This document shows, in pieces, positions 16,301 through 39,952 of a DNA stretch of 46,941 nt (within the stretch, counting starts at the first letter, position 1; each line of letters opens with the position of its first letter). A model generated the notes under the pieces. It did not search any database. It saw only the letters and a program-made list of their open reading frames with translations, and had not been told where the DNA came from. The position numbers and the translations under genes are program-made. Origin of the DNA: Chloroflexota bacterium (lineage in GTDB: Bacteria; Chloroflexota; Anaerolineae; Anaerolineales; UBA11858); assembly GCA_030608465.1 (NCBI GenBank), contig JAUWEC010000003.1:1-46941 (forward strand), written 5' to 3'.

Positions 16301-16327
16301 GTTATTCTCCTCGTTAGGAACCGCTGC

Positions 16328-18198: not shown

Positions 18199-18203
18199 AG
18201 TCC

Positions 18204-19025: not shown

Positions 19026-20522
19026 CTAGGGAGTGATCTTCCGTGCGCTGAGCAGACTTTTTTCTTCTGCTTTCCCGCTGGCAATAACGGTCTCGGTAAA
19101 TCGGGTCAGGGTGCCCAAATATTCTGCTGCTCCATCATGAGCAATCCACCCGTCCAAATTGAAGGGTATAGTGCCTGAAGCGGGAATCCATTCCCCGTTG
19201 TACTTGCGGGCAATATGAATGTGAGAGCCGGTGCTTTCACCACCTTCGCAGGAAGGATGGCCGAGGAGATCTCCTGCTTCAACCGATGCTCCTTTTCGGG
19301 CTTTATCCTGGGTTCCTAGGTGGAGATATAAAATCACCCATCCAGTGAGTGTATCTCCATCGCCATCTAGGTCCAGCTCAATCAGGCCAGTATCTGATCT
19401 GGCAATAATCCCGGGTGCAACTGCTACAGCCCATTCACTGGTTATTTCACAACCGCCTGTTTCACTCGGAGGGGCAAAATCCAGCGCAGCCCAGGGATCT
19501 CCCTGCCCCCAACCGGTATGGGGACCTCCCGTGAAAGCCCAGGTCTTTCCACTTTCGAATGGAAGCCGCAGAGTCGGCTGTCTTAAACTTCCAGGAATAT
19601 GAGGCTCGCAATTCCAGGGATCCTCAAAATATGACTGATATATTTTCAGGAATCCATCCGGGCTGATTGTGTAGTCATATAATGCTTTAGGTTCCAGCTG
19701 GGAGAAGTAATACTGTAGGGCAACCGTCGCCGCATTTTGCCAGGGATCCGGATGCTCAATGGTTTGATCAAGGTACTCCAGTGTATCCAGATGGTTGACC
19801 AACCATCCGTAATATCCTTGGTTCAGAGAATTTGCAGCCCAAACTAACTGGATATATAAACCATGATAACCGGTTTTAACATAACCTAAAGGGTAATCCT
19901 CTAAATCATCAGGGGGTATGGGATTGCTTAACGCGCCGGTTTGATATTCCAATAAAGTCAGCAGCACTCGGGGACTGATGCTGAAACTTGTAGAAACATA
20001 GGAGACGATCTCTGCCCCACTGCGTTGCTGTTCAGCGGTATACTGTTGGTGATTTTTTAACCAACCGGGTTGAGACTCTACAAATTCTGTTACGTTGAAT
20101 CCAATTTGGGCAGGTCCATTAATAAAGGCGCAGTTAGGGAGGATTTGAAACTGAGATCCCCAGAGCGCTTCATAATAGATTGGGATCTGCATGGGCAAAC
20201 CTGGCGGGAGGGTTGTTGCTCCTTCTGGGATGATCGAATTTTCTGCCAGGATTTCCTCTACCGTTGTGTTAAACCTGAAAGCAAGATTAGATAATGTATC
20301 ACCGGATTGGGCGGTATAGTCCACTAATTCTCCGGGTGAATAAACTGGACGCTCTGACACCGGCCTGGGAGAGATGGTTGGGGTTGGCGTTATCGTGGGG
20401 AACTGAGTAGTAACCGGGTCCGGTATTTGCGGCAAGCAGGCGGAAAGCAGAAAAGCCAGGATCCAAAAACACTGAATCAGAAGTTTGGCTTGATTTCGAA
20501 TAAAATCTTGGAAGCGGGACAT
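19026..20522 (-). CDS. LysM + M23 (LasA-like) peptidase lipoprotein, paralog 3
   Basis: LSAC lipobox, TP-rich linker, LysM (YTAQSGDTL), SISPRVLL..LEYQ, GGPH-x12-D, YLH, HIH. Confidence 0.85.
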   Translation of the reverse strand: MSRFQDFIRNQAKLLIQCFWILAFLLSACLPQIPDPVTTQFPTITPTPTISPRPVSERPVYSPGELVDYTAQSGDTLSNLAFRFNTTVEEILAENSIIPEGATTLPPGLPMQIPIYYEALWGSQFQILPNCAFINGPAQIGFNVTEFVESQPGWLKNHQQYTAEQQRSGAEIVSYVSTSFSISPRVLLTLLEYQTGALSNPIPPDDLEDYPLGYVKTGYHGLYIQLVWAANSLNQGYYGWLVNHLDTLEYLDQTIEHPDPWQNAATVALQYYFSQLEPKALYDYTISPDGFLKIYQSYFEDPWNCEPHIPGSLRQPTLRLPFESGKTWAFTGGPHTGWGQGDPWAALDFAPPSETGGCEITSEWAVAVAPGIIARSDTGLIELDLDGDGDTLTGWVILYLHLGTQDKARKGASVEAGDLLGHPSCEGGESTGSHIHIARKYNGEWIPASGTIPFNLDGWIAHDGAAEYLGTLTRFTETVIASGKAEEKSLLSARKITP

Positions 20523-20534
20523 AGGTTTTCTATT

Positions 20535-22112
20535 TTACCGCTTAATTTGGCTTCCTGGAGCACTGTAAGGGCTGGCAGTGACGATACCTTCACCGGGTTT
20601 AGTGAGGCTTCCTTTATAAGCTGAAACACCATTATGCACTGTCCATCCACTTAAAAGAAAAGGAATCGGACCATCGGCTGTCATCCATTCCCCATTGTAT
20701 TTCCGCGCCATGTGGACATGGGTGCCGGTTGAAATACCACCTTCACAGGAAGGATGCCCCAGTTTGTCTCCGGAATTGACCTCATCACCCGCGTTTACAA
20801 GCCGTCCAGTAGTAGCTATATGGAGGTATAACAACACCCAGCCGGAATGCTCATTATTGTTGTAATCCAAGTTGATGGTCACTATGCCATCTTCTGCCCT
20901 GACGACCAATCCTGGCGCGGATGCTGTTACATAGGCGTAGGATTGTGAACACTCGCCTTTAAATCCAGAAGGGGCAAAATCAATTGCAGACCAGGAACCT
21001 TCCCGTTCCCAGGCCCCATGGGGGCCCCCGGTATAGTTCCAAACAGTACCCAGGGTGAAAGGCAGTTGAAGATTGGGCTGGACCAGATTGTGGGAAAAAA
21101 GGGGTTCATACTGCGTTCGATTTTCTGAGGAACCAAACATTTCTGCATAAGTTGTGATAAAGCCAGTATCATTATCCAGCGCCTGGATCCATTCATCACT
21201 TTCATGAATCTGTGAGAAAAAATACTGGAGGGCTACAGTTCCGGCGTTCAGGCTGGGCTCAATCCGGGCTGTTACATCACTAGAGGGGTTTTGGGAATTC
21301 CTAATTACAATCTCAGTCAATCGTCCTTCCCGCCAACCATAATAGCCTATCGAGAGCTGGTTGACCGCCCACCGAAGTTGATGTACGAGACCATCGTCAT
21401 CGTAATCTATGTGCCCCAGGGGATATTTCAGCTGGGCAAGGTTTTGAGGTTGACCAAATACCCAATGACTCTGGTATTCCAACAGGGCAAGCAGCAGAAA
21501 AGGATTGATGGAATTGTTTTGCGCAATCTGTTTAACAATCTCTCCCCCGCTGGTTAAGGTCGTGTGTTCATATTCTCGTGGTTTACTTAAATAGCCCCCG
21601 GCCTGTTCCACAAAACTGACCACATCAGAAGGAAAATCGGAATCCGTGATTGCTCGGGAATAAACAAATTCGCTATCTGGCAGCAGATGTACATCAGAGG
21701 TCGTATTGATTAATACCTGAGGAATAATCAGTAGGGTTCCCGGGTTGATAAAGGAAGTTTCAGGCAAAGTTACATTGGATTTGATTTGATCTTTCCCCAC
21801 GCCAAAATGGGTGGCAACAACAGCCATTGTGTCACCGGCTTGGGCATGGTAAACAATGGGTTCCCGCTCGACATTGGGCGTAGGCACTAATGTTTCTGTA
21901 GGTGGAATGAATACAGTTGGGGTCGGATAAAATTCAGCTGTGGGAGTTGCTGAATATATAAGGTCAGGTACTTGAGTTGGAGGCGGATCCGGGTTGGGTG
22001 TCACTGGCGTTGGGGTGTACCCCACGGGAGGGATAAAAACGGGAGGGTTTATTTGATATAAATTGCATCCCGTCAAGGAGAGCATGAGTAATAAAATGAT
22101 AATTCGTTTCAC
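20535..22112 (-). CDS. LysM + M23 (LasA-like) peptidase lipoprotein, paralog 2
   Basis: LTGC lipobox, LysM (YHAQAGDTM), SINPFLLL..LEYQS, GGPH-x12-D, YLH, HVH. Confidence 0.85.
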   Translation of the reverse strand: MKRIIILLLMLSLTGCNLYQINPPVFIPPVGYTPTPVTPNPDPPPTQVPDLIYSATPTAEFYPTPTVFIPPTETLVPTPNVEREPIVYHAQAGDTMAVVATHFGVGKDQIKSNVTLPETSFINPGTLLIIPQVLINTTSDVHLLPDSEFVYSRAITDSDFPSDVVSFVEQAGGYLSKPREYEHTTLTSGGEIVKQIAQNNSINPFLLLALLEYQSHWVFGQPQNLAQLKYPLGHIDYDDDGLVHQLRWAVNQLSIGYYGWREGRLTEIVIRNSQNPSSDVTARIEPSLNAGTVALQYFFSQIHESDEWIQALDNDTGFITTYAEMFGSSENRTQYEPLFSHNLVQPNLQLPFTLGTVWNYTGGPHGAWEREGSWSAIDFAPSGFKGECSQSYAYVTASAPGLVVRAEDGIVTINLDYNNNEHSGWVLLYLHIATTGRLVNAGDEVNSGDKLGHPSCEGGISTGTHVHMARKYNGEWMTADGPIPFLLSGWTVHNGVSAYKGSLTKPGEGIVTASPYSAPGSQIKR

Positions 22113-22118
22113 TGGTTT

Positions 22119-23624
22119 TTACCGTTGAATGTGATTGTAATCAGTATTGGTATCTTCAGCCCGAATCACTTGTTCACCGCGAGTCATTATGCCCTGATAA
22201 GCAAATCCCAAACCTTGGGAAACCCAGCCGTCCATGATAAAAGAGATATCCTGATCAGCGGGAATCCATTCTCCATTATACCGTCGGGCAATGTGAAGGT
22301 GAGTTCCGGTAGAGATTCCTCCTTCACAGGACGGATGTCCAATTCGGTCTCCCGCCTTTATACGGGATCCAGTCTTAACCCGGTCTCGGGTTTCAATATG
22401 CATATACAGGATAGACCACCCGGTCTGACTGTATGGATCTCCATCCAGACTTTGGACAACGGCACCGTGATCAGACCGGACGATTATGCCATCTGCTACC
22501 GCAACTACCCATGCATTGCTGCTACTGCAGCCTACATCACCGGGAATTGGTGCAAAATCAAGTGCCGCCCAGGCAGAACCGGTATCCCATCCGCCGTGGG
22601 GTCCTCCGGAGAATAACCAAGTTACACCGTCTTCGAATGGCAGCTGAAGCTGGGGTTGGGTTAGACCTTCGGGTACAAGGGGAGAAAATGTGTAATCAAA
22701 GGGATAGCCGAACAGGCTAGAATAGGTAGAAAAGAAGCCTTCCTCTGATACGGCAGATAACCAATTCTTGTAAGGGAGGAGCCGCGAAAACAAATGCTGC
22801 ACGCCTGCTGATCCGGCATTGATGGTCGCGTTTATGGGAACGTTAATCCCATCAGTCATTGTCCAGGTACCGATTCCTCTAACTTTCCAGAGGTAGTAAC
22901 CCCGATTCAGTTCGTCCGCTGCCCAGGCTAACTGTCGGTACAACCCCTCATATCCTGCTTCTTTATGATTTAGCGGGTAGGGATTGTCTTTATCGCTCCG
23001 CGTTGTTACCCACTGACTTTGATATTCGATCAGGGCAATCAGAAGGCGGGGATTTATGGAATAATCTTCGGAGATACGCTGGACAATTTCAGATCCAGTC
23101 TGAGATTCACCGTTTACTTCTTCCTGATAATCTTTTAAATACCCCGACTGGTTATTGATATATGAAACTGTATGAAAACGGACTGTATAAGGACTATGAA
23201 CTAATTCAGAGTCAGGTATTAATTTAAAACCAGGCCCCGTATCCTTTATATCAGGTGCAGGCAGCAGCAATGCCTGTCCGGTATAGATTAGACTGGGGTT
23301 GGCAATCTCGTTTGCGTCAATAATTTGTTGAGGGAGCAAATTATTCTGGTAAGCGATGGACTTTAATGTATCTCCCCACTGAACAATATAGGTAATATCT
23401 TCTGTGCGCAACGGTGGAAGTAGTTTAGGAGCGCTTGGCGTAGGGGTATAAATCGGCTGATCTGGAATTCTGGTTGGAGGTATGTAAGGATCCGCGGTGG
23501 CTTCTGGTTCAGAATCTGATTTCACTTTGGAAAAATTTATGTAGGGTGCTGTATGCGCCTGCTTGGTGCAGGCACTGACCATTAAAACCAATAAACTGAG
23601 GAAGAATCGCCTTGAAGTAGCCAT
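22119..23624 (-). CDS. LysM + M23 (LasA-like) peptidase lipoprotein, paralog 1
   Basis: SRRFFL...VSAC signal, LysM (YIVQWGDTL..IA), SINPRLLI..IEYQS, GGPH-x12-D, YMH, HLH. Confidence 0.85.
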   Translation of the reverse strand: MATSRRFFLSLLVLMVSACTKQAHTAPYINFSKVKSDSEPEATADPYIPPTRIPDQPIYTPTPSAPKLLPPLRTEDITYIVQWGDTLKSIAYQNNLLPQQIIDANEIANPSLIYTGQALLLPAPDIKDTGPGFKLIPDSELVHSPYTVRFHTVSYINNQSGYLKDYQEEVNGESQTGSEIVQRISEDYSINPRLLIALIEYQSQWVTTRSDKDNPYPLNHKEAGYEGLYRQLAWAADELNRGYYLWKVRGIGTWTMTDGINVPINATINAGSAGVQHLFSRLLPYKNWLSAVSEEGFFSTYSSLFGYPFDYTFSPLVPEGLTQPQLQLPFEDGVTWLFSGGPHGGWDTGSAWAALDFAPIPGDVGCSSSNAWVVAVADGIIVRSDHGAVVQSLDGDPYSQTGWSILYMHIETRDRVKTGSRIKAGDRIGHPSCEGGISTGTHLHIARRYNGEWIPADQDISFIMDGWVSQGLGFAYQGIMTRGEQVIRAEDTNTDYNHIQR

Positions 23625-31514: not shown

Positions 31515-31556
31515 ACAACCACAGCAGTTAACGAGATTGCTGTGGTTGTCTTTTTT
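31515..31556 (+). terminator. Intrinsic terminator
   Basis: ACAACCACAGCA / TGCTGTGGTTGT followed by CTTTTTT. Confidence 0.8.
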
Positions 31557-31591: not shown

Positions 31592-32191
31592 CTACGTTGA
31601 GGATGCGCGTAAACGGCGGCTGAGGATGATTACCACCATTAACACACCCGCAGCTAAGAGAAGTCCCGGGACACCAAAATCATCTGCAAAACCCGTGTCA
31701 GGCAGTGCAGTAGTGGTCGGGATTGGCGTTTCCCCTCCTCCATCTCCCGCTTGCTGAGTCAACAGGGCTGCAACAGTAGCAGTTGCAGGATCCAGCGTCT
31801 CATCACCAGCTGCTTCAGGTGTATTGGTGGGTGCCAATACCGGAGTAGAAGTGTTGGTGGGGACCGGTGTTAAAGTTTCGGTTGGCGGAAGAGTAGCCGT
31901 TAAGGTTGGTGTCAGTGTGATTTGTTTTGCGATTGCAGTAAGCTGGGCTTCTTCCGCGACAGCTGTATTAGTGGCGTTGATTGCTGCTACCTGAGTCTGC
32001 TGTCCGGTATCACGACTGGGTAAGTAAACGACAGCGTAAGCGGCAATAGCGAGTAATGCAATCAGGAGGATTCCGCCCAGGATTCCGGCAACCACCAGGA
32101 AGGTCCGGTTGGACCCCCTGCTTGTTGAGATAGTTTCTTCGGAATCTATTTCCTCGAATTCCAGATCATCAAAATCATTCATCATGCCCAT
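31592..32191 (-). CDS. Thr/Pro-rich surface protein with N-terminal TM and C-terminal LPDTG sorting signal
   Basis: Acidic N-tail, TM, T/P stalk, LPDTG + hydrophobic helix + RRLR. Confidence 0.75.
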   Translation of the reverse strand: MGMMNDFDDLEFEEIDSEETISTSRGSNRTFLVVAGILGGILLIALLAIAAYAVVYLPSRDTGQQTQVAAINATNTAVAEEAQLTAIAKQITLTPTLTATLPPTETLTPVPTNTSTPVLAPTNTPEAAGDETLDPATATVAALLTQQAGDGGGETPIPTTTALPDTGFADDFGVPGLLLAAGVLMVVIILSRRLRASST

Positions 32192-32245: not shown

Positions 32246-33304
32246 TTATTCCTTAAGAATCTCGACGTTTGATAGCGGAATTGCAGCTCGTTTTTCATGG
32301 CCATAGGATACTTCAGCCGTACGGGTTTCAATACCATTTGATAATAGCTGTTTTCTGGGATAAATATAGTCTATTGTCCCGATTTGAGGTGCTTGGGGAC
32401 CATTAACTATGATAACTCTTTTTCCTGAAGAAAGGGTTTCAGTCTCAATCGGTAAATCAGGTTCTGGTTGGTTAGGTTGGGAAATTATTATTTCGGGATA
32501 TTTTCCCAAAAACGGATCATACACCTGGGCGTTTAAAGCAATATTCCTGTCTCTATTGGCTACCAGTATTTTCTCTGCAGCGCTGTTCATTGGAGTTGAT
32601 CCAAATCCATCGATAACCAAGATTGGATAACTTATTGATTGAGCGGCCGGAATCAAATCTGACGAGATGCTTCCCAGGATTAACCCTTTAATAGGAATAT
32701 TGGCAGCGATTTCCAGCACTTCCGGATTGCTGCAGTATCCAGCTGCCAGAATTGCGCCCCGGAATCCGATATTTATTTGTTCCGCCGACAATTCCTGATT
32801 AAGATTATTGCTGACAGGTTGAATAACACCATAGGTGATATTTCCATTGCCCCACAAACCCTGAATTAATGCGCCCCGGGTTTCGATGATTGCTCCCCGC
32901 TCAGGAATAATATTGGTCACCGTTCCTTCCATGCCAGCCTGAAGTTCAAACGGTTGTGAGGTAATTTCGTAAAGCACTTTTCCTTCTCCGGCAATTTTCA
33001 CTAGCCCCGAAAATGGAGCCCGGATAACTCTCTGGAATAAGCCAATTGGACCAGCGATTACATCTCCTGTTGAAAGCTCATCCCCGGCTCGCCGCTGAAG
33101 CAGTTCATCTGCCCGGGCAGGAGTTACATTTAAACCCTGGGCAATATCAAGCAGTAAATATTTGGCCATGAGCGGCGCTACCACAATCACATCTGTGGGA
33201 GTGACTTTCTGCATACGGCGAACGATTACATGTCCGTCCGAAGACAGGACGCGCTCCCGCCTGATATTCGTAAGTGCGTGGATGTGCTTTACCTTACTTA
33301 ACAT
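32246..33304 (-). CDS. Uncharacterised soluble protein with barrel-sandwich-hybrid-like repeats and a C-terminal KOW-like motif
   Basis: GDELSTGDVIA...IRAPFSGLV, LQAGMEGTV, IQGLWGNG, GKRVIIVNGP...GTI. Confidence 0.6.
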   Translation of the reverse strand: MLSKVKHIHALTNIRRERVLSSDGHVIVRRMQKVTPTDVIVVAPLMAKYLLLDIAQGLNVTPARADELLQRRAGDELSTGDVIAGPIGLFQRVIRAPFSGLVKIAGEGKVLYEITSQPFELQAGMEGTVTNIIPERGAIIETRGALIQGLWGNGNITYGVIQPVSNNLNQELSAEQINIGFRGAILAAGYCSNPEVLEIAANIPIKGLILGSISSDLIPAAQSISYPILVIDGFGSTPMNSAAEKILVANRDRNIALNAQVYDPFLGKYPEIIISQPNQPEPDLPIETETLSSGKRVIIVNGPQAPQIGTIDYIYPRKQLLSNGIETRTAEVSYGHEKRAAIPLSNVEILKE

Positions 33305-33344
33305 AATGTACCATTATAGTTCAGGTGCCTCTGCTTTGGTTTCA

Positions 33345-35102
33345 TTATTCATATTTCAGCAGAGTTTTAATCCAGGTCTCATTCCTTTTCCAATTCTTTT
33401 CCTGATCCTGTAAAAAGTGTAGCGGACGACCCCTGGCATCAATGATGATGCCTAATGATCCACCTACTGCGTTCACCTTTCCGCTCTTGCCAGGTCCTCC
33501 CATACCGACATCGAAGCGGTGCAGGGGACGGAGGTGAAGGGAGACTTTTTCTCCTAATTCGATTGGAAGAACAGTCAATGACCCGAATTTAATTTCACGG
33601 GTAAAAGTTCTCCCATCTTCCCGGTTTACTCGGATTCTTAGAATTGGGGTTCCGGGTCTGGCATATCCCATTGGTGCAATAATTGTGCCTAAATTTAGAA
33701 ATGTATTTGATTCAATAACCTGAACTGTTAACAGGGGATTGATATCACTTGCCGCACCCAATCCGGGCAATAAGTCGTTTTGATCCAGCGCGAGAGTTGT
33801 TACGCCGGTCGGTTGAATACCATCCAGTAGAATTGACAGGCTTTGTGATCGGGTGGGAGCCTGAGTTAGAATTCTGCCTAATCCAATGATGGGTTCAATT
33901 GGAGGCATAAGCGAGCTGGACGCTGCAGATCGCTTATGAAGGCTGGGAATGGTTTTTTTAGAAGCGATTCTTAAAGCCTGTTTGGCGAGGGCAATCTCAA
34001 TTTCCAGGTGTTCAGATTCTGTCGGCAGACTGGCAGGATACGCAGACTTGGTATAGATATAGTCCCGGACGTCCTGCTCGGCTAGTTTAAGCGGCAGCCA
34101 GCGGGTAATTTCCTCAAGGGAGCTCTCCTCCAAGACTCCGGTACAACCGGCTCCAACACCAAGTCCTGGAAAGACTCGGAGTGTTTCCTCGCCCGAAGAC
34201 GCCGCGGCCAGAATTGTGGCGTACGATCCAATGTCAATACCCATGACCCCTTTTTCTGGTTCATATTTTTCGCTCAAAAAACGGATCACCCGTCCGAGTG
34301 CTGATGCGGTGGAGGTAAAGTTGTCATCCGTCCATGATAAGACTTCCCTGATTCCGCCGGTTTGCTTTATCCGGACATCTTTATAGATTTCATTGAGCTC
34401 ATTTTGGGCGGGGTAAATGTTCTCCTTTCCTAGAACCGGCTGAATATTAGGGGCGATGCGCAATTTGCTGATTTTTTCCAATCCTGACTTCACTTCTTCT
34501 TGAAGTTCTTCATTGCCGGCATATAAGATGTGAGGTCTTTGGCTTTCATCTATAAGATAACTTGATAAGCCGATGCTTTCCAAAATATTAAGGAGAGATT
34601 TTGAAGCGCCTTTATTTGTGCCCCCGGTGATGATGATTAAGTCTGGGCGCTTTTCGGTCAGTAAATTGATCCTGTCTGATGATGTGCGCCGGTCATTGAG
34701 TGAAATTTCAGCCATGATTTTGGAATATGTTGTGTGAGCCAGGTATTGGGCATTAAGCAAAGATACATTATCCAGCAGCCCAACTGTCACCACAGATATT
34801 GGATTTCCGGCGGACATGGTCGCCGCCATGATGTCAACGCCTTGATTATCCTTGGTACTGGGAATGATCAATCCCTCTTTCTCGCTGAAGAATGTCCTAC
34901 TGGTGATATGCTGAAGTTCTTCAATTGCTCTCCAGGCGCCCTCGGTTACATCAAAGAGGGGTGCGCCGGCAGTTGTGGGAGCGGATGCAGAAGCTACAAA
35001 CCGGTACTTGCCGCTCACCACATCAAAGAATAAAGCCCTGGTGATCGTGTTGCCGATATCTAATGTTATGAGAGATTTTGCCGATACAGTGGTTATATCC
35101 AT
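33345..35102 (-). CDS. GlmL/MutL-like (glutamate mutase reactivase family) ASKHA/actin-fold ATPase
   Basis: LDIGNTITRA (phosphate-1), TMSAG, PDLIIITGGTNKG, GIDIGSYAT (phosphate-2), GIIIDARGRP. Confidence 0.75.
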   Translation of the reverse strand: MDITTVSAKSLITLDIGNTITRALFFDVVSGKYRFVASASAPTTAGAPLFDVTEGAWRAIEELQHITSRTFFSEKEGLIIPSTKDNQGVDIMAATMSAGNPISVVTVGLLDNVSLLNAQYLAHTTYSKIMAEISLNDRRTSSDRINLLTEKRPDLIIITGGTNKGASKSLLNILESIGLSSYLIDESQRPHILYAGNEELQEEVKSGLEKISKLRIAPNIQPVLGKENIYPAQNELNEIYKDVRIKQTGGIREVLSWTDDNFTSTASALGRVIRFLSEKYEPEKGVMGIDIGSYATILAAASSGEETLRVFPGLGVGAGCTGVLEESSLEEITRWLPLKLAEQDVRDYIYTKSAYPASLPTESEHLEIEIALAKQALRIASKKTIPSLHKRSAASSSLMPPIEPIIGLGRILTQAPTRSQSLSILLDGIQPTGVTTLALDQNDLLPGLGAASDINPLLTVQVIESNTFLNLGTIIAPMGYARPGTPILRIRVNREDGRTFTREIKFGSLTVLPIELGEKVSLHLRPLHRFDVGMGGPGKSGKVNAVGGSLGIIIDARGRPLHFLQDQEKNWKRNETWIKTLLKYE

Positions 35103-35110
35103 ATTAATTA

Positions 35111-35818
35111 TTAAGTCGAAAACAGCGTAAACCCAATACTATTCAAAAATTCCCAGACAAATGTCAACCGTTCAACCAGCGCTGCTAGGGAAGATAAATA
35201 GACACCGGCGTAAAGTGCCCCAAAGGTTATTGCCAGAAAGACTTTACCGATTTTACTTATATTTTCAATAATAGGCAGTCGTTCATTCGACTGTCCCGGT
35301 GTTTCCCGAGTCCCAAAATGGAAATAAATTAAAGTAGTAATGGTACCCAAGACGATTATAAAGCCATTAATAGCCTGGTCCCATCGGCTGGTTGAGATTG
35401 CATAAGCAGATGGATCCACGCTGTTGATAGTTCCCAAGATCTGTGGGAATAACGTTCCAGTAATTGCCCCACCGACCGCGGTTGCTGCCCCAATCCCAAC
35501 CAGGATTGCTACAGACCAATTCCCCGCTTTGCGAAACGGTGTGGCTTTGGTTAATAAAAAGAGACCGGGGATAAACAACAGGAGGGATAACAAGCGTTCT
35601 CCCTGCGTTCCATTGATGAGGGGAATTATCAGGCGGGGGATCAACACATTATTGATGGTTATGAGGGCAACATATGCTGCTGAAACACCAATAAAAATGT
35701 GGATTGCAAGTCGGAAGAAAGGATTGTCTCCCAATAGGTAGCTGAAGATTAAGATGGTAAGCAAAAAACCCAGTCCAAGTCCTATGAAATCAAATAGGCT
35801 TATTATGGTGAGGTTCAC
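35111..35818 (-). CDS. Uncharacterised multi-pass membrane protein
   Basis: About 6 TM helices; TILIFSYLLGDNPFFR..HIFIG motif. Confidence 0.75.
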   Translation of the reverse strand: MNLTIISLFDFIGLGLGFLLTILIFSYLLGDNPFFRLAIHIFIGVSAAYVALITINNVLIPRLIIPLINGTQGERLLSLLLFIPGLFLLTKATPFRKAGNWSVAILVGIGAATAVGGAITGTLFPQILGTINSVDPSAYAISTSRWDQAINGFIIVLGTITTLIYFHFGTRETPGQSNERLPIIENISKIGKVFLAITFGALYAGVYLSSLAALVERLTFVWEFLNSIGFTLFST

Positions 35819-38256
35819 TTAATCTCTCCTATCAGTCCGGCTCTGTGGCGAGAAAATAATGAAAACACGCCATTTGCCAATCCGCCAATAAATATTGTCC
35901 CCACAGTGATGAAAATGCCGATGTTAAACGGAAGCCAGGCTGCATTTGCAAGGTTCGGCTGTTCCCGGAGATGTTCATAATTCAGACCGTGAATTACTCC
36001 TGAAACGTACCCTGAGAGTAGTTGGGGAGAAGCCCGGAAATATGGCTGGATTAATGGTTCTACCTGAGCGCTGACCACCATATTCAAGGGTGTATTTTCA
36101 AGATGGGTGCCTACCTGTTCGATCCAGATTTTTGCTGTATTAGGATCATCTGTAATAACCAGAATCATAGCAAAATCCCCGATTGAATCCACTTTGGTCA
36201 GGGGAGGGGATTCCCAGGCGTTGCTTCCATCAAAAGCGAGGGGAATGATTTTTTTAGGGGCGATCATAAAGCTTACCAAACCTGCAGACTCGCCGGGTAA
36301 ATATCCCAGGTTGATATACTGCTGGTTGTGTTTATAAGCGTGTTTTTCTTGCGTGGAAGTCAGGAAAAATTCAGCCAATACCGGTCCGGTCGGTTGTGTG
36401 GAAACAAACGAAAGATATGTGCCTTGTTCCATCAGATGGTCTACAACAGCAGCCGCGGCAATGTGCATTTCAGCAGTTGCGGCGGGTTGATAATCAAAGG
36501 CTATCAAAACAGGTTGTCCGTCGTATAACTCATCAATCTGATTATATAAAGCGCCATAACCAGAATTATTGATTTGCCCTTCTGGAGGTAGTTGTGTATC
36601 AACAGTTCCCCCAAAGATAATCGTTCCACCGATTGTGATGATTAGAATGATGGCAATCAACCAGCGGAGAATTCTTTGGGTCTGAACTGGAGCGGCTTTT
36701 TTAATGGGTTTTACTTTCTTTTCTTCTCCAATAAGCTTTCTCAGCAGATTTACATATTCCTGGTGGGATTTTGTTGCTGTGAGGTCAAGAGGTTTCCTGG
36801 CTGCATGTTCTGTATCAGGGGCAAATTCGGCTTCTGCGGGAAGAACACTGGGGATTCCGGCCAGAGGGCCGTAGTTTTCGATATAGTCCTCGTCCTCCGA
36901 TAGGCCAGTCGAATCCATAGATTCAACCACTGGACGCATTGCTTCCACCCAGCCGGGTAAATCGCCGGGTGATATTTCATCTTCAATGACGAGAGTACCT
37001 TCTTCTCCAGAGGCTGTTGTCAGCCAGCTGGGAAGTTCCTCGCTAAATAAATCATCATAGAATTCCTCTTCTTCAATTTGGAATGGATCGACTCCAGCAA
37101 GGAACCGAAGTTCTTCCGGAATATCTTGGGCATCCTTCGCAGATGTACTGACATCATCGGCTGCCCAGGAAGGAAATTTCTTGTGCTCTACGCTCTCTTC
37201 AATTGATATTTGGGTCGTTTCTTTTTCCTCTATCTTCTCTTCAGAGATCGTTTCCTCAGAATCCTCGAGTTTGATATCTGAGTCATAGAGATCTTTTTTC
37301 TGTAAGAATTCATTCAGTTTTTCATCATCTCCATCCATCTGCAGCCAATCTGGCAGTTCATCCGCGGTTGCATCGGACTCCTCTGGTTTTGCTTTCTGGC
37401 CCACTTCCGTTTTTCCTGTAACTGACAACCAATCAGGAAATGAAGAGTCATCATCTACTTCATCCCTGCTCTTATTCAATCTTTTAATTTTCTCAAGCCA
37501 GTCGGTGCCGGATTTCCCTTCAAGTGGAGGGGACACAGGTACAACCTCAGATTCCCGATCCTCATCGGCGGTTGAGTCCGGATCTTGTAGCATGTCCAGC
37601 CATCCCGAGTCCTCCGAAAAGGATGCTGGCTCCAGATCCGGTTCGGCATCATCCAATGGTTCAGTCGGCTGGATGCTGATTTGATTGTCGATTTCTTCAG
37701 AAGAGAAGAAGTCATTCAGCAGGGAAGGATCATCCGATTCGGTTGGTTGGATGCTGTCTTGGTCACCAATTTCTTCTGATGAGGAAAAGTCCTTCAGTGG
37801 GGATGAATCATGTAGTTCGCTCGGCTCAAGGCTGTCACGAACATCGTCTTCATCAGGTGGAAAGAAGTCATTTCTCAGGGATGAAGCTTCTGGTTCGGTT
37901 GGTTGGATGCTGTCTTGGTCACCAATTTCTTCTGATGAGGAAAAGTCCTTCAGTGGGGATGAATCATGTAGTTCGCTCGGCTCAAGGCTGTCATGATCAT
38001 CGTTTTCATCAGGTGGAAAGAAATCATTTCTCAGGGATGAAGCTTCTGGTTCGATTGATTGGAAGAAATCATCCAGACGTGATGAATCATCGGGTTCAAC
38101 CGGCGGTAGGCTGCCAAGAGCATCGAGCTCTTCAGGAGGGAGGAGATCGTTACGTAAAGAAAAATCATCAAACCCCAAGGGGCTACCGCAAAATTCACAA
38201 GACTCTTGATCGTCTGAATTTGACCTACCGCAGGTGGGGCAGAGGATATCAGTCAT
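35815..38256 (-). CDS. Zn-ribbon + long acidic disordered region + TM + alpha/beta domain + TM (813 aa)
   Basis: Real start ATG 38256, two bases after the upstream stop; CPTCG..N...CEFCG; D/E/P/S-rich region; VLIAFDYQP, YINLGYLPG. Confidence 0.75.
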   Translation of the reverse strand: MTDILCPTCGRSNSDDQESCEFCGSPLGFDDFSLRNDLLPPEELDALGSLPPVEPDDSSRLDDFFQSIEPEASSLRNDFFPPDENDDHDSLEPSELHDSSPLKDFSSSEEIGDQDSIQPTEPEASSLRNDFFPPDEDDVRDSLEPSELHDSSPLKDFSSSEEIGDQDSIQPTESDDPSLLNDFFSSEEIDNQISIQPTEPLDDAEPDLEPASFSEDSGWLDMLQDPDSTADEDRESEVVPVSPPLEGKSGTDWLEKIKRLNKSRDEVDDDSSFPDWLSVTGKTEVGQKAKPEESDATADELPDWLQMDGDDEKLNEFLQKKDLYDSDIKLEDSEETISEEKIEEKETTQISIEESVEHKKFPSWAADDVSTSAKDAQDIPEELRFLAGVDPFQIEEEEFYDDLFSEELPSWLTTASGEEGTLVIEDEISPGDLPGWVEAMRPVVESMDSTGLSEDEDYIENYGPLAGIPSVLPAEAEFAPDTEHAARKPLDLTATKSHQEYVNLLRKLIGEEKKVKPIKKAAPVQTQRILRWLIAIILIITIGGTIIFGGTVDTQLPPEGQINNSGYGALYNQIDELYDGQPVLIAFDYQPAATAEMHIAAAAVVDHLMEQGTYLSFVSTQPTGPVLAEFFLTSTQEKHAYKHNQQYINLGYLPGESAGLVSFMIAPKKIIPLAFDGSNAWESPPLTKVDSIGDFAMILVITDDPNTAKIWIEQVGTHLENTPLNMVVSAQVEPLIQPYFRASPQLLSGYVSGVIHGLNYEHLREQPNLANAAWLPFNIGIFITVGTIFIGGLANGVFSLFSRHRAGLIGEIK
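37738..38053. repeat. 156-bp near-perfect tandem duplication (52 aa) with a 78-bp sub-period
   Basis: Units start at 37741 and 37897, with a third junction at 38053; protein EPEASSLRNDFFPPDE...DQDSIQPT twice, plus degenerate flanking half-units. Confidence 0.92.
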
Positions 38257-38258
38257 CG

Positions 38259-38903
38259 TTAGTCCCCATAAGGACGGTCTGTTCCCATAAGGATCCTGAT
38301 CCCGGTGGTTATGGTTCCCAACGCGATTCCTATCAGCAGACCGCGCGCTCCGCCGAGTGCAGGAACACGAACAATCCAATCACGAATGACATGCAGGAAA
38401 GGAAGGGTAGCAGAGGGAATAGAAAACGAGCCGAGCAGGACCAGGAGAATCACAAAAAAGAAAGTGATCGAGAAAAGATCCATCCTTTTTCGCAGGATAC
38501 TGGCCGCGGCGTAGGTCAGACTGACGGCAATAACAGCTAATAAACTAGTTTCAATCGGCAGTTGAATATAAGTGAATATCCAATTTGTCATCTGGAAATT
38601 GGGTTGTCCGAGCATGTAGGATTGGACCATGTCAATAATTCCCACCACTAAAGTCAACAAAAGAGCGATGACTAGAATGAGACTGTACCCGCTGTTTTCG
38701 TTGTCAGACCCCATCTTTTTAAAGTGGACTGAGAGCAGATTAATGATTCCAACCAGCAGCGCAACTGCAGCTAGTACCAGTCCCGTCCGTAACAAAGCGA
38801 AACGAATATTGGTGATTGATGGGATAAAATACCCGGCCAGGACGACAACCCCCACCCCGATGGCAATCGCTGCCGAGACGGGTGCTCTTAATTTAATATT
38901 CAC
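38259..38903 (-). CDS. Uncharacterised multi-pass membrane protein
   Basis: About 6 TM helices; C-terminal WI..VP..GGARGLLIGIALG.....RIL.G.DRPY. Confidence 0.75.
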   Translation of the reverse strand: MNIKLRAPVSAAIAIGVGVVVLAGYFIPSITNIRFALLRTGLVLAAVALLVGIINLLSVHFKKMGSDNENSGYSLILVIALLLTLVVGIIDMVQSYMLGQPNFQMTNWIFTYIQLPIETSLLAVIAVSLTYAAASILRKRMDLFSITFFFVILLVLLGSFSIPSATLPFLHVIRDWIVRVPALGGARGLLIGIALGTITTGIRILMGTDRPYGD

Positions 38904-39697
38904 ATTGAACCTGCCAGAATATATTCAAAGAAAGTATCAATTCCAAGAAATTTCAATAAGACACTTCCGAGAATGATGAAGATGATAATCCATCTGAAAA
39001 TATCCTGGGCAGAAATGCTGGCCAGATGGATTTTACCGGCGCCCAGGTATGCGCCGCCGGCATATAATTCTTCTCCTATCAGGGGATCTGACGCTGATGC
39101 ATATATTACAGCCTGCGCAGGAAGTTGAGCAGTGCCGGCAATTGTCGGGGTGCTCTGCCGTTCTCCAGCGGTGGTTAACCAGGTTATTTCGCTGCCAAAC
39201 CAACCGGTGTGAATATTCGCGGAAACATTTTTATCCCGGATGGTTGTGAGGGTTCCTGCCGCATAAGAAAATGGTGTCACGCCAACCAGTTCCCCGGAAG
39301 GATTTTTACCCTTGTCAGCGACACTGATTGCTTTAGAGGTCCCCTGAATGGTGTCTTGTGCCAGGATTGAAATTACTGCATTACCAGTGGAAACGACCGG
39401 GGGATAATCACATACAGATGATTTTTCAATGACCTGTTTTAATATACTTAATCCCGCCAGAGCCGCAGCGGATTCCGGACCCGTGATTCCCCCCCTCCCC
39501 AGAGAGATATGCAGCTGCGTGCCGTCTTCTACTGAGACATTTATCTCCTGGTTGATCTTATCGTAGGCAGGTATGGGTCGGATATTTTTCTGCTTCGGTT
39601 CCTGATTGATGATCGAAAAAAAGATCATTAGACCGAGGAAGAGTACAATTACCACAATCCCTGTGAAGCCTGTAGCTGACACAGTGTTAACCTCCAA
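38900..39697 (-). CDS. DUF6754-like membrane-anchored protein
   Basis: TM, IRPIPAY..I...VEDG..LHISLG, SYAAG, LIGEELYA.GAYL, C-terminal TM; family assignment from memory. Confidence 0.62.
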   Translation of the reverse strand: MEVNTVSATGFTGIVVIVLFLGLMIFFSIINQEPKQKNIRPIPAYDKINQEINVSVEDGTQLHISLGRGGITGPESAAALAGLSILKQVIEKSSVCDYPPVVSTGNAVISILAQDTIQGTSKAISVADKGKNPSGELVGVTPFSYAAGTLTTIRDKNVSANIHTGWFGSEITWLTTAGERQSTPTIAGTAQLPAQAVIYASASDPLIGEELYAGGAYLGAGKIHLASISAQDIFRWIIIFIILGSVLLKFLGIDTFFEYILAGSM

Positions 39698-39952
39698 CTA
39701 CGCTGTTGGCTCGAAGGACCTGAGAGCCTTGATAAATATTGCGGTTTCCGTTGGGTCCTCTAATATCCTGGCAAAGTCTCGGGACTGTTCATTGGAAATA
39801 AAAGGAGACAAAACTGGTTGGCTTAAATATACCAACTGGGCACCAAGCAGATTGATTGGACCTGAAGCTTCCAAAAAGGTTGCTGTGAGATGATGGAGCC
39901 GCAATTTATATAGCGTTTTGATCCAATTTTCCCTATTTTCTTGAATCTTCAT
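39698..39952 (-). CDS. Small hypothetical protein, first gene of the operon
   Basis: 84 aa; FLEA.GP..LLGAQLVY..QP; stop codon abuts the next start; TGcTATACT upstream. Confidence 0.65.
   Translation of the reverse strand: MKIQENRENWIKTLYKLRLHHLTATFLEASGPINLLGAQLVYLSQPVLSPFISNEQSRDFARILEDPTETAIFIKALRSFEPTA

Follow-up and report, generated by a model that had tools for sequence, protein, structure and literature searches.

A conserved Chloroflexota gene cluster with a long-form MutL/GlmL-family ATPase and a possible role as an ATP-coupled, membrane-associated envelope machine

Gene organization of the cluster

The cluster occupies the minus strand of the window, which is the whole 46,941-nucleotide stretch of DNA that was analysed. 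The genes, the domains discussed below and a nearby hairpin are located as follows.

g1, 39698..39952, minus strand: 84 aa; first gene of the cluster, a small protein
g2, 38900..39697, minus strand: 265 aa; DUF6754 protein, TM - soluble alpha/beta domain - TM
g3, 38259..38903, minus strand: 214 aa; ~6 TM segments; 4-nt overlap with g2
g4, 35815..38256, minus strand: 813 aa from ATG
g4 zinc ribbon, 38176..38241, minus strand: residues 6-27; Zn_Ribbon_1 match below the cut-off
g4 motif array, 36946..37440, minus strand: five [LFIVM]-P-x-W-[LMVIA] motifs at residues 273, 301, 361, 408 and 433
g4 conserved core, 35815..36714, minus strand: last 299 residues; TM - three-layer alpha/beta/alpha domain - TM
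g5, 35111..35818, minus strand: 235 aa; ~6 TM segments; 4-nt overlap with g4
g6, 33345..35102, minus strand: 585 aa; long-form MutL/GlmL-family ASKHA ATPase
g6 C-terminal extra domain, 33348..33707, minus strand: residues 466-585; D-A-R-G-R-P motif
g7, 32246..33304, minus strand: 352 aa; barrel-sandwich hybrid, swivelling beta/beta/alpha domain and KOW/Tudor-like barrel
g8, 31592..32191, minus strand: 199 aa; signal-anchored, Pro/Thr-rich, LPDTG sorting signal
hairpin, 31515..31549, no strand: 15-bp stem, between g8 and a convergent phosphoglucomutase gene

The junctions between g1 and g7, calculated from the ORF coordinates, are 0, -4, +2, -4, +8 and +40 nt, which reproduces exactly the spacings of the seven co-oriented genes at 32246-39952 in the original prediction. 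The gene g8 starts 54 nt past g7 in the same orientation and is conserved after g7 in Anaerolineales loci. The unit here is thus eight genes: the seven-gene operon proposed earlier stands as described for g1-g7, but its gene count does not. An alternative start of g4, a TTG that opens an 854-aa ORF from 38379, is also available. A hydropathy scan assigned 2, 6, 2 and 6 TM segments to g2, g3, g4 and g5, respectively, and none to g1, g6 and g7. The 15-bp-stem hairpin is a possible terminator common to g8 and the phosphoglucomutase gene; overall, the pattern scan showed no enrichment over shuffles.

The membrane cassette

The g2 protein matches Pfam DUF6754 (PF20539) with 94.6 bits against a cut-off of 27, as the DUF6754-like assignment anticipated, and the family comprises 2385 representative clusters at E<=1e-3. 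The K/R residues that follow TM1 place its soluble domain, by prediction, in the cytoplasm. The two polytopic proteins belong to no known family: g3 has neither a PDB match nor a consistent Pfam match, g5 has no PDB, Pfam or Atlas match, and the two exhibit no detectable kinship with one another (hhalign probability 0.2%). The g4 polypeptide starts with a zinc ribbon, followed by an acidic disordered region that holds a 53-aa tandem duplication and five Φ-P-x-W-Φ motifs; its C-terminal part is a Rossmann-like ectodomain flanked by one TM segment on each side. The core alone of all these parts is present in every lineage, and short g4 versions of 279-330 aa are known from other lineages. The core was modelled with a pLDDT of 85.7 and a pTM of 0.73, and its fold matches are generic Rossmann-like ones only, the best of which (1kjn_B) yields a Z score of 9.7 and an RMSD of 3.3 over 142 aa. 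The positive-inside rule places this domain outside the cytoplasm. Family and PDB profile searches matched no cassette membrane protein to a characterised transporter.

The long-form ATPase and its relation to glutamate mutase

The g6 protein matches Pfam MutL (PF13941) with 208.4 bits, and shares with GlmL/MutL, the accessory protein of B12 glutamate mutase, the ASKHA fold and the nucleotide-binding signature. The public source names call the ATPase 'glutamate mutase L' in 3 of 120 cases among the matches listed, the concealment by annotation that had been foreseen. The Pfam match and these names favour taking g6 for a bona fide GlmL. However, the score against the GlmL equivalog NF040745 of NCBIfam is 99.6 bits, far below the cut-off of 475, and g6 exceeds GlmL in length by 120 residues, which include an additional conserved domain. 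In 122 long forms, the nucleotide-binding signature is kept at D/E15 (118 sequences), G17 (115), D290 (114), G292 (115) and G409 (122), and the extra C-terminal domain at D555 (121), R557 (121), P560 (120) and W577 (118), with a near-invariant D-A-R-G-R-P motif. This domain is the mark of the long form: it occurs in every long-form ORF match (27 from the phylum, loci L010-L030, and 8 from metagenomes, loci L151-L158) and is absent from 7 of 7 short GlmL-type ORFs of 443-483 aa.

The genomic distribution separates the two proteins further. Short GlmL-type genes directly adjoin GlmE in genomes G056 and G235, whereas g6 was never found with GlmE and has genes for membrane proteins as its neighbours. 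Glutamate mutase E (PF06368) was not found in the window's own MAG, which is 86% complete; it is present in 6 of 301 phylum genomes and in none of the 79 genomes that carry DUF6754, so that strict co-occurrence with the mutase fails, as originally expected. The 32 other large ORFs of the 47-kb window have no mutase or B12-binding family match, which agrees with the prediction. The cluster is independent of glutamate mutase, and the identification of g6 as GlmL is extremely improbable; the cluster is not a glutamate mutase accessory system, and g6 is mislabelled. Pfam searches gave g6 no FtsA or MreB family match at E<=0.1.

Conservation and modularity

Of 100 Chloroflexota loci, 54 have the exact g1-g8 order and the majority of the others are truncated by contig ends; g2-g3-g4-g5-g6 occur in order in 17 of 20 fetched phylum loci. 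The 80 named loci all belong to one order-level group and are not independent. With the order conserved across 100 related loci, the arrangement is far beyond chance. A hand comparison of position tables located a PF13941 match within ~8 kb on the same contig in 57 of the 79 DUF6754 genomes, and the seemingly unlinked families f20 and f27 are explained by contig breaks inside g4. Outside these lineages, 23 of 30 metagenome loci, with GC of 0.30-0.66, have the cassette in the order g2-g3-g4-g5. The gene order is therefore conserved, as had been proposed. The original prediction mentioned similar neighbourhoods in other anaerobes; the cluster is a Chloroflexota-wide feature and has no particular tie to anaerobes.

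An alternative order, g1-g6-g7-g2-g3-g4-g5, was observed in one diderm metagenomic lineage, on contigs that also bear a TonB-dependent receptor. Orthologues of g1, for which no Pfam or NCBIfam family was found, come first in both this and the Chloroflexota order. The g6 and g7 genes also adjoin each other in 16 more loci, whose families have no Pfam DUF6754 match, occur without the cassette in many families, and have near-equal tallies of 168 and 169 of 301 phylum genomes; in 5 of 5 genomes whose operon is without g7, g7 is present elsewhere. Conversely, low-GC metagenome loci contain the cassette with no g6 within 8-10 kb. The set is thus composed of two separable modules, a membrane cassette (g2-g5) and an ATPase module (g1, g6 and g7), with a gap of 8 nt at the g5-g6 module boundary here. 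SEDS is present in 269 of 301 phylum genomes as against 169 for g7, and the system was not found in several peptidoglycan-bearing families, so that it is not a universal wall function.

The zinc ribbon and motif array of g4

The g4 N-terminus matches Zn_Ribbon_1 with 22.7 bits (E 8.5e-5), below the cut-off of 25. Orthologues share this N-terminus, as do the stand-alone zinc-ribbon proteins encoded upstream of the ATPase. The motif that follows has a genome-wide rate of 0.12 per 1000 aa (121 matches in 1,016,114 aa of ORFs of at least 80 aa), and arrays in g4 orthologues contain up to 41 motifs. Taken together, 634 motifs give the consensus [DE]-[LVI]-P-[DAS]-W-L-[RQ]. Written as [DE]-Φ-P-x-W-L-[RQ], it aligns in register with the two FtsZ tails of this MAG, ...LDIPTFLRNR and ...LDVPAFMRRR. 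The FtsZ C-terminal conserved peptide is described as a stretch of 8 residues, among them a conserved Asp, Pro and Phe, which binds FtsA, ZipA, SepF and others (PMC9939409). What appears to be new is a zinc-ribbon protein that bears five motifs in register with this peptide; their aromatic residue is always Trp, whereas FtsZ has Phe. A TPR-disordered-HhH-TPR protein on contig C85 of the MAG is a second array protein, with 13 motif copies.

Motif arrays are absent from family f17, locus L043 and all 30 non-Chloroflexota loci though the cluster genes persist there, which marks the motif tether as an add-on and not part of the core. In some families, the zinc-ribbon/motif region is located on a separate membrane-tethered protein beside g6 and is not fused to g4. 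The stand-alone zinc-ribbon proteins possess basic/aromatic C-terminal tails in 3 of 3 cases, six extended ATPases in alignment A5 have similar tails, and in L190 and L192 the proteins with motifs that are encoded upstream of g6 carry C-terminal TM anchors. Basic/aromatic tails on an ATPase or its tether resemble MinD. Membrane targeting of the module is reached in several ways, namely fusion to the g4 core, basic/aromatic tails and TM anchors.

The g7 and g8 proteins and the envelope context

The g7 model (pLDDT 84.2) divides into three domains. Residues 15-142 resemble EmrA and BCCP (Z score of 7.4), residues 144-276 align with Enzyme I (2wqd_A) with a Z score of 11.0 and RMSD of 2.3 over 106 aa, and residues 290-352 align with a KOW domain (5ohq_A) with a Z score of 8.6 and RMSD of 1.5 over 52 aa. 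The Pfam KOW match of the C-terminus, 18.3 bits, is below the cut-off of 22.3; the assignment was confirmed by a PDB profile search (Spt5 KOW, E 7.1e-7) together with the fold. The swivel domain has no invariant His, and the modelled protein would be adaptor-like.

The C-terminus of g8, with LPDTG, a hydrophobic stretch and RRLR, constitutes a sortase sorting signal. LPx[TSA]G occurs in the last 60 aa of 56 of the 83 g8 orthologues above 40 bits, and the MAG encodes a sortase (PF04203, 106.9 bits); PT-rich LPXTG proteins are common. A glycosylation link comes from two families only: in f27, a PMT_2-type GT-C glycosyltransferase gene is inserted between g5 and g6, and in f20 a related membrane protein gene without a Pfam match occupies this site, as do genes for a GT2, an EamA-like small transporter and an NDP-sugar epimerase. 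The MAG also encodes FtsA, two FtsZ and MreB.

A proposed envelope machine and its alternatives

Our best explanation, a tentative one with a probability of roughly 0.45, is that the cluster encodes a conserved, undescribed ATP-coupled membrane-associated envelope machine. In this proposal, g2, the g4 core and the unrelated ~6-TM proteins g3 and g5 would form an integral-membrane cassette (module M), with the g2 soluble domain at the cytoplasmic face and the g4 Rossmann-like domain at the outer face, each with a TM helix at both ends. The small protein g1, the ATPase g6 and the adaptor g7 would form a cytoplasmic module A that docks on module M, giving one stoichiometric physical complex driven by ATP. 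Binding and hydrolysis of ATP by g6, a putative ATPase judged by its conserved signature, would drive or gate a cell-surface process, most likely one that assembles or exports a glycan or glycoprotein constituent of the surface. In Chloroflexota, the disordered acidic motif array fused with the zinc ribbon onto g4 may be a multivalent tether through which a partner from the cytoplasm is enriched at the membrane. The Anaerolineales operon additionally encodes the PT-rich sortase substrate g8.

Of the three outcomes that the original prediction named as refuting it, none occurred, and its interpretation is partly supported. The proposal is favoured by the tight junctions, the order conserved in Chloroflexota loci, the joining of the same genes in a second order elsewhere, the wide adjacency and nearly equal tallies of g6 and g7, the several routes of membrane targeting, the nucleotide-binding signature kept in 122 sequences and the distinctness of g6 from GlmL. 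The GT-C insertions, the g8 LPXTG signal, the MAG sortase and the g4 domain predicted outside point to the envelope. Against it, the modules are separable and could act independently, and GlmL, the characterised kin of g6, is regarded as a chaperone for enzymes rather than a motor in the membrane. In addition, the g4 core and g7 have generic or adaptor-like folds that reveal no chemistry, and the swivel has no invariant His; the glycosylation link involves two families, PT-rich LPXTG proteins are widespread, and several peptidoglycan-bearing families are without the cluster.

Known machines offer partial parallels. In PilM-PilN-PilO, GspL and MreB-MreC-MreD-RodZ, ASKHA proteins dock on small membrane proteins, and as here the gene for a cytoplasmic actin-fold protein accompanies those for bitopic and polytopic membrane proteins extending to the outer face; however, no similarity to their partners was found by sequence or profile, and the cluster contains no pilus, secretin or elongasome genes. 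Wzc and CpsC/CpsD are polysaccharide co-polymerases with a cytoplasmic ATPase. They share with this cluster the TM-ectodomain-TM arrangement beside such an ATPase, and the polyprenol-sugar glycosylation genes of two families fit the comparison, but here an ASKHA protein takes the place of the P-loop BY-kinase, a Rossmann-like ectodomain that of the helical co-polymerase domain, and Wzx/Wzy genes are absent.

Module A could instead be a cytoskeletal or scaffold system, which we consider unlikely. Here g6 would polymerise on the membrane like other actin-fold proteins, and the acidic repeat protein g4 would tether g6, or the divisome FtsA, via its FtsZ-tail-like motifs, organising cell shape, septa or filament architecture and not transport. 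The FtsA-FtsZ peptide pair likewise combines a membrane actin-fold ATPase with a disordered partner bearing a D-Φ-P-x-aromatic-L-R type docking motif, and MamJ of MamK-MamJ is acidic and repetitive like g4. The membership of g6 in the actin fold superfamily, arrays that reach 36-41 copies, the second array protein of the MAG and the MinD-like tails are consistent with a scaffold, as is the register of the 634 motifs with the MAG's own FtsZ tails. Yet g6 belongs to another, MutL/hydantoinase-like branch of the superfamily without FtsA or MreB matches, and to our knowledge no PF13941 member polymerises. The motif has Trp and sits in 5-41 copies on a membrane protein; the arrays are missing from f17, L043 and all 30 non-Chloroflexota loci, and the MAG already has its own FtsA, FtsZ and MreB. 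The motif does fit the FtsZ peptide as described in PMC9939409.

Somewhat less probable still is that g6, g1 and g7 form a chaperone or reactivase that depends on ATP, the role proposed for GlmL, DdrAB and EutA. Its client, labile or equipped with a cofactor, would be a cassette membrane protein or an unlinked enzyme that the module repairs, loads or remodels. The founding members of PF13941 are linked to B12 mutases, as the GlmL-type genes beside GlmE illustrate, and g6-g7 is the most widely conserved pair, often without the cassette. DdrAB/GdrAB combine an ASKHA ATPase and a small subunit with a swivelling beta/beta/alpha domain; the pairing of g6 with the g7 swivel recalls diol dehydratase reactivase by analogy, and g6, g7 and g1 appear comparable in size and fold. 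On the other hand, the swivel here is on a separate protein with barrel-sandwich and KOW domains, and no dehydratase, B12 enzyme or candidate client is linked, GlmE being rare in the phylum and never with DUF6754. Repeated independent membrane targeting would also be unexpected for a soluble-enzyme chaperone, and the near-invariant C-terminal domain of the long form is foreign to GlmL.

Compared with the envelope machine, a purely inherited association, in which the cassette and the ATPase pair are functionally unrelated and merely joined in Chloroflexota, is improbable. Each unit does occur alone in some lineages, and the named loci come from one order-level group. However, two distant lineages both combine the units, each in its own gene order, and the close spacing, with 4-nt overlaps and gaps of 0-8 nt, crosses the module boundary. 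Moreover, g1 accompanies g6-g7 in one of these orders but g2 in the other, and the zinc-ribbon/motif region is either fused to the cassette protein or encoded beside the ATPase.

Organization of the gene cluster

The original prediction described seven co-oriented genes with tight junctions, and the ORF coordinates yield the same junction values of 0, -4, +2, -4, +8 and +40 nt. The seven genes are real, and the unit is extended by a co-oriented eighth gene. The genes, designated g1 to g8, are:

39952..39698, minus strand: g1, 84 aa
39697..38900, minus strand: g2, 265 aa, DUF6754 (PF20539)
38903..38259, minus strand: g3, 214 aa, membrane protein
38256..35815, minus strand: g4, 813 aa counted from ATG, with zinc ribbon, motif array and TM-Rossmann-TM core
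35818..35111, minus strand: g5, 235 aa, membrane protein
35102..33345, minus strand: g6, 585 aa, ATPase, MutL (PF13941)
33304..32246, minus strand: g7, 352 aa, adaptor
32191..31592, minus strand: g8, LPDTG protein, eighth co-oriented gene, 54 nt past g7

The g2-g3-g4-g5 genes are termed here the membrane cassette and g1, g6 and g7 the ATPase module. Hydropathy assigns two TM segments each to g2 and g4, and six each to g3 and g5. Four of the eight proteins (g1, g3, g5 and g8) have no Pfam family match, and the Pfam matches of the g4 zinc ribbon and the g7 KOW domain are both sub-threshold. When g4 is read from its ATG, the zinc ribbon stands at the extreme N-terminus, matching the orthologues. 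A promoter and terminator pattern scan showed no enrichment over shuffled sequences (12 against 13.7 and 9 against 9.9). A hairpin with a 15-bp stem and a T-run at window positions 31515-31549, between g8 and the convergent phosphoglucomutase gene, may be a bidirectional terminator.

Conservation in Chloroflexota

Twenty regions were fetched from 20 genomes of different families, 17 chosen for nearby DUF6754 and MutL matches and three for MutL only. After one profile-building round, g2-g3-g4-g5-g6 were found in order in 17 of the 20 regions, with a g1-like ORF ahead in 16. The choice of regions did not draw on g3, g4 or g5, so that their recovery counts as an independent result. Relatives of g6 numbered at least 548 when one genome per species was scanned, and the best 80 of these loci are all titled as Anaerolineales, Anaerolineae, Anaerolinea, Chloroflexota, Chloroflexi or 'Chloroflexia' MAGs (metagenome-assembled genomes). 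The exact g1 to g8 order occurs in 54 of 100 loci (L031-L130), and most of the others are truncated by contig boundaries or contain ORFs broken into two parts. The coupled cluster of ATPase and membrane protein genes originally noticed is thus confirmed, and it extends to g8 and comprises two modules.

Among 301 genomes sampled across the phylum, Pfam matches to PF13941 were found in 168 (including the genomes flagged as unpublished G038 and G272, at most two) and to DUF6754 in 79. A MutL match is present anywhere in the genome in 76 of the 79 DUF6754 genomes, and on the same contig within ~8 kb in 57, as judged by comparing the place tables by hand. In many of the remaining DUF6754 genomes the matches lie close to contig ends of fragmented assemblies, for which the repetitiveness of g4 offers a plausible explanation. 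The break is seen directly in families f20 and f27, where one contig ends in g1-g2-g3(-g4) and g5...g6 are on another. DUF6754 was present in 19/19, 18/18 and 13/15 sampled genomes of three families. The cluster is single-copy and occurs in every sampled genome of several families, which makes a role in core cell biology likely. SEDS proteins (PF01098) are encoded by 269 of the 301 genomes (including the flagged unpublished G145, G038, G227, G173 and G272, at most five), and families lacking the system are among them, so that peptidoglycan synthesis is at most necessary and not explanatory.

The ATPase g6 and its relation to GlmL

g6 aligns with positions 2-448 of the 450-position Pfam MutL model with 208.4 bits, above the gathering cut-off. 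On the NCBIfam GlmL equivalog NF040745 it scores 99.6 bits against the curated cut-off of 475, and it also fails TIGR01319 (67.4 versus 204 bits) and NF040744 (62.5 versus 600 bits). GlmL has ~460 residues and no extra C-terminal domain, whereas g6 has 585. A profile of the C-terminal domain (residues 466-585) matched all 35 long-form ORFs (27 of loci L010-L030 and eight of the metagenome loci L151-L158) and none of seven short GlmL-type ORFs of 443-483 aa. Conservation was counted over 122 long-form sequences, with only ORFs of at least 500 aa taken. The nucleotide-binding signature is retained (D/E15 in 118, G17 in 115, D290 in 114, G292 in 115 and G409 in 122), as is a C-terminal D-A-R-G-R-P motif (D555 in 121, R557 in 121 and P560 in 120). 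Over-extended or atypical ORFs (L034, L035, L037, L039 and L046) were left out of the g6 alignment A5.

As originally stated, no glutamate mutase subunit or B12-binding gene is among the families matched by the other ORFs of the window. The MAG that holds the window (2.75 Mb, 86% complete) has one PF13941 gene and no match to glutamate mutase E (PF06368). PF06368 was found in six of the 301 genomes (G056, G092, G220, G235, G268 and G281) and in none of the 79 with DUF6754, which disposes of a strict co-occurrence with glutamate mutase E. As a positive control, a short GlmL-type gene adjoins GlmE in G056 and G235. The four genomes of family f3 (G076, G148, G184 and G266) encode both a long-form ATPase and a short GlmL-type protein (~490 bits on PF13941); no GlmE was found in them, and the short protein could be the accessory of another B12 aminomutase.

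Close homologues of g6 are named 'glutamate mutase L' or 'TIGR01319 family' in public sources. This label is wrong for the g6 clade; applied by automated annotation it hides the system and wrongly implies glutamate fermentation. A Pfam search at E<=0.1 returned PF13941 only, with no FtsA, MreB, ParM or MamK family membership, and the MAG has separate genes for FtsA and MreB outside the cluster. The g6 profile matched nothing below E 0.1 among PDB sequences. A search for fused long forms (1025-2925 aa) found none, which is weak evidence. FcmB of cyanobacteria, a ParM-derived actin (PMC12645912), was considered and rejected as unrelated.

Domain structure of the adaptor g7

The g7 model (pLDDT 84.2) comprises three domains: a barrel-sandwich hybrid, a swivelling beta/beta/alpha domain and a KOW/Tudor barrel. 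The barrel-sandwich hybrid superposes on EmrA (4tko_B) with a Z score of 7.4 and RMSD of 1.9 over 56 aa. The swivelling domain, residues 144-276, aligns with Enzyme I (2wqd_A; Z score 11.0, RMSD 2.3, 106 aa), rifampin phosphotransferase (5hv1_A; Z score 10.2) and aconitase X (7cnr_B; Z score 9.9). It thus shares its fold with the mobile, phospho-histidine domain of PEP-utilising enzymes, in which a conserved phospho-carrier histidine would be expected. The invariant columns of a 12-sequence alignment of g7 are seven Gly and one Val, with no invariant His, so a phospho-carrier role is unlikely. The KOW domain of the window protein alone scores 18.3 bits on Pfam versus a cut-off of 22.3; the g7 profile matches Spt5 KOW with E 7.1e-7, and the modelled KOW/Tudor-like SH3 barrel superposes on 5ohq_A with a Z score of 8.6 and RMSD of 1.5 over 52 aa. 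Loci L038 and L039, with over-extended or atypical ORFs, were left out of the g7 alignment A1.

Matches of g7 orthologues to RnfC_N and NQRA_N are all sub-threshold (18-23.5 bits), and the model aligns with NqrA (4u9o_A) with a Z score of 7.3 and RMSD of 2.7 over 65 aa. Rnf and Nqr complexes contain 6-TM subunits, RnfA/E or NqrD/E, whereas g3 and g5 have no Pfam match and are mutually unrelated. The FeS and FMN domains typical of Rnf/Nqr were not found by Pfam in the cluster.

The membrane proteins

g2 matches DUF6754 with 94.6 bits over model positions 13-255 of 257, above the gathering cut-off. K/R residues lie right behind TM1 in most g2 orthologues, hence the soluble domain should be cytoplasmic; the g4 core is flanked by basic residues on both sides and should face outward. 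The g4 core was modelled (pLDDT 85.7) as a three-layer alpha/beta/alpha sandwich with a long helix on either side. Its structural matches are only generic Rossmann-like ones (1kjn_B, Z score 9.7, RMSD 3.3, 142 aa; KtrA/RCK, Z score about 8-8.8), and Foldseek found no PDB match at E<=1e-3. As a lead, the g4 core matched only unnamed clusters in the ESM Atlas (score 0.90), most commonly from Planctomycetota, Zixiibacteriota and Myxococcota; g5 gave no usable match there.

Profiles of g2, g3, g5 and the g4 core matched nothing below E 0.1 among PDB sequences, and no relatives of g3 or g5 were detectable in Pfam, NCBIfam or the PDB. The 6-TM proteins therefore show no match to a characterised transporter in these databases, in keeping with the original prediction. 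A Pfam search at E<=1 with all members of alignments A2 and A3 returned no family common to more than three members. Rows with over-extended or atypical ORFs were left out of A3 (g5; L031, L037 and L039) and A7 (g4 core; L034). Paralogy of g3 and g5 was rejected (hhalign probability 0.2%). For g2 and the g4 core the score is not significant (probability 0.75%, E 0.075), although the two align at equivalent positions behind TM1.

Two modules and relatives beyond Chloroflexota

The g7 profile matches 169 of the 301 genomes (including the flagged unpublished G227 and G038, at most two), and the families are nearly those of MutL. The flagged genomes enter these tallies, but none of the individual claims or loci depends on them. 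Among families without a Pfam DUF6754 match, another 16 loci have g7 directly behind g6; one of these, L187, has a full but diverged cassette. Three loci of families f29 and f32 have g6 and g7 only. Where the operon lacks g7, the gene is encoded elsewhere in the genome in all five genomes tested (257-284 bits).

At E<=1e-3, 1.84 billion proteins contain 2385 representative clusters of the DUF6754 family, and the occurrence of the cassette in other phyla makes its function of general interest. Some members, 894-943 aa in length, carry a lipoprotein-like signal and an N-terminal ectodomain of ~650 aa. Thirty metagenome loci (GC 0.30-0.66) were collected around relatives of one such protein. The g2-g3-g4core-g5 cassette is found in the same order in 23 of them; six of the other seven are cut at contig ends and L171 lacks g3. 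Eight of the 30 have the arrangement g1-g6-g7-g2-g3-g4-g5, five complete (L152-L155 and L158) and three cut; they probably represent one lineage and do not count as independent. On Pfam MutL the g6 of this arrangement reaches 448.5 bits, and it has the C-terminal domain. A TonB-dependent receptor encoded on a contig of this arrangement points to a diderm host; Chloroflexota are not known to have such receptors. In the low-GC metagenome loci no g6 was found within 8-10 kb of the cassette. Two GC-rich loci contain three extra tandem g4-core paralogues of 296-304 aa each behind the cassette (L166:14054-16759 and L168:13972-16677).

The g4 motif array

The disordered region of g4 contains five [LFIVM]-P-x-W-[LMVIA] motifs. 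In the MAG ORFs of at least 80 aa, 121 instances are found in a total of 1,016,114 aa, corresponding to an expectation of ~0.1 for g4. Motif counts in g4 orthologues range from 0 (family f17, L043) to 36-41 (L041, L042 and L044), and the consensus of 634 motifs with sufficient flanks is [DE]-[LVI]-P-[DAS]-W-L-[RQ]; the aromatic residue is Trp in all 634 as a consequence of the search pattern. In f29, f32 and f14 a separate zinc-ribbon protein is encoded immediately upstream of g6 (7, 7, 6 and 3 motifs), and in the three cases examined it ends in a basic/aromatic tail. Extended ATPases, present in six loci, have C-terminal tails like these, and two of the six ATPases contain motifs too. In L190 and L192 the protein upstream of g6 has two motifs and a C-terminal TM anchor. 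Motif-rich ORFs were not found in the 30 non-Chloroflexota loci.

Only one other MAG protein is enriched in the motif. This 1384-aa protein (C85:2035-6189, plus strand, locus L149) has TPRs at both ends, a helix-hairpin-helix and a long acidic disordered region with 13 motifs, and may share a motif-binding partner with g4. The acidic region of g4 also includes a near-perfect ~53-aa tandem duplication (window 36946-38100, minus strand), in which EPEASSLRNDFFPPDE...GDQDSIQPTE is present twice; repeats of this type probably break short-read assemblies in relatives.

The g4 motif aligns in register with the C-terminal peptides of the two FtsZ proteins of the MAG, ...LDIPTFLRNRNRNR and ...LDVPAFMRRRAY. 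Four of its positions also agree with these tails, and it is a candidate docking motif of the FtsZ type D-[IV]-P-x-F-[LM]-[RK], with Trp in g4 in place of Phe. PMC9939409 describes the FtsZ peptide as an 8-residue segment in which Asp, Pro and Phe are conserved and which binds FtsA, ZipA, SepF, SlmA and ZapD, a description that the g4 motif fits. The two FtsZ proteins (contigs C215 and C54, loci L136 and L137) have different C-terminal peptides, and one adjoins FtsA. A predicted complex of g6 (alignment A5) and g4 residues 264-323 scored 0.08 relative to a mark of 0.32, which speaks neither for nor against binding. The D-Φ-P-x-W-L-R repeat offers a directly testable handle on the binding partner, which may be g6, g7, FtsA or another protein, and if it engages an FtsA-like site, g4 would be a rare bacterial multivalent short-linear-motif scaffold.

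Links to the cell surface

g8 begins with an acidic N-terminus and a signal anchor, continues with a Pro/Thr-rich stretch and ends in an LPDTG motif followed by a hydrophobic segment and RRLR. Its C-terminus, ...ALPDTGFADDFGVPGLLLAAGVLMVVIILSRRLRASST, has the features of a sortase sorting signal, and g8 is a putative sortase substrate. LPx[TSA]G occurs within the last 60 aa of 56 of the 83 g8 orthologues scoring above 40 bits, and the MAG encodes a sortase (PF04203, 106.9 bits).

Two families lacking g7 in the operon carry inserts between g5 and g6 (L194:3828-7497 and L196:6470-8083 for the f20 and f27 loci). The f27 insert is a 537-aa PMT_2-type GT-C glycosyltransferase that overlaps g5 by 4 nt and is separated from g6 by 3 nt. 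The f20 insert has four genes, for a related 549-aa membrane protein without a Pfam match, a small EamA-like transporter, a GT2 and an NAD-dependent sugar epimerase/dehydratase. Together these are the gene complement of a polyprenol-phosphate-sugar pathway, which acts at the outer face. The glycosylation inserts, the outward g4 domain, the large g2 ectodomain in diderm relatives and the PT-rich g8 together point to the cell surface, although the link from the inserts, seen in two families, is circumstantial.

Functional interpretation

The gene order is conserved and independent of glutamate mutase E. The ATP-driven membrane complex originally proposed is most likely, with a probability of about 0.45, an undescribed ATP-coupled envelope machine composed of the membrane cassette and the ATPase/adaptor module, to which Chloroflexota add a multivalent tether. 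A cytoskeletal or scaffold role is rather unlikely; beside the FtsZ-like motif of g4 stands the absence of FtsA, MreB, ParM or MamK family membership in g6. A chaperone or reactivase role for the MutL-type ATPase, with its conserved nucleotide-binding signature and neighbouring membrane cassette, is slightly less probable still. The cassette and the ATPase pair are each found apart from the other, yet that they are unrelated neighbours is improbable, since the linkage of the same genes in two different orders argues for a functional tie. Lastly, PF13941 membership and the names of homologues speak for g6 as a true GlmL, which is nonetheless hardly credible considering the equivalog score far below cut-off, the additional C-terminal domain and the lack of GlmE in every DUF6754 genome.

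The ATP-coupled envelope machine can be specified further, though such a scheme is tentative and on balance doubtful. It would be a new actin-superfamily-driven envelope machine, widespread in Chloroflexota and with its cassette also in diderm phyla, in which a membrane core of four proteins recruits the MutL-type ATPase and the swivel/KOW adaptor. In Chloroflexota a multivalent array of up to 41 FtsZ-tail-like D-Φ-P-x-W-L-R docking motifs would mediate this recruitment. The array would then be a bacterial short-linear-motif scaffold that couples ATP consumption in the cytoplasm to the assembly of surface glycoproteins or a sheath, and possibly also to the division machinery. Chloroflexota abound in sediments, soils and wastewater sludge, and little is understood of their envelope, filament formation or gliding. 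No description of the system came to light in open-access full texts (DUF6754, PF13941, GlmL family, the motif and ASKHA in Chloroflexi), and one elsewhere is possible.

Other genes of the window

The rest of the window is ordinary chromosome, encoding a GlmS-type amidotransferase, amidase, PfkB kinase, RecF, peptide deformylase, phosphoglucomutase, fumarase, TyrRS and IleRS. The eight cluster proteins gave no match to PADLOC defence models, so by PADLOC the cluster is not a defence system. Three tandem paralogues of ~500 aa with LysM and/or peptidase M23 domains (19026-23624, minus strand), resembling cell-wall hydrolases, lie 9 kb away from the cluster. At 15920-18590 (minus strand) a DUF2089 zinc-ribbon/HTH gene is followed by three co-oriented SHOCT-like DUF2089-C genes. 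An Abi_2 (abortive-infection-like) gene is located at 2740-3651 (plus strand; 180.5 bits) amid housekeeping genes.
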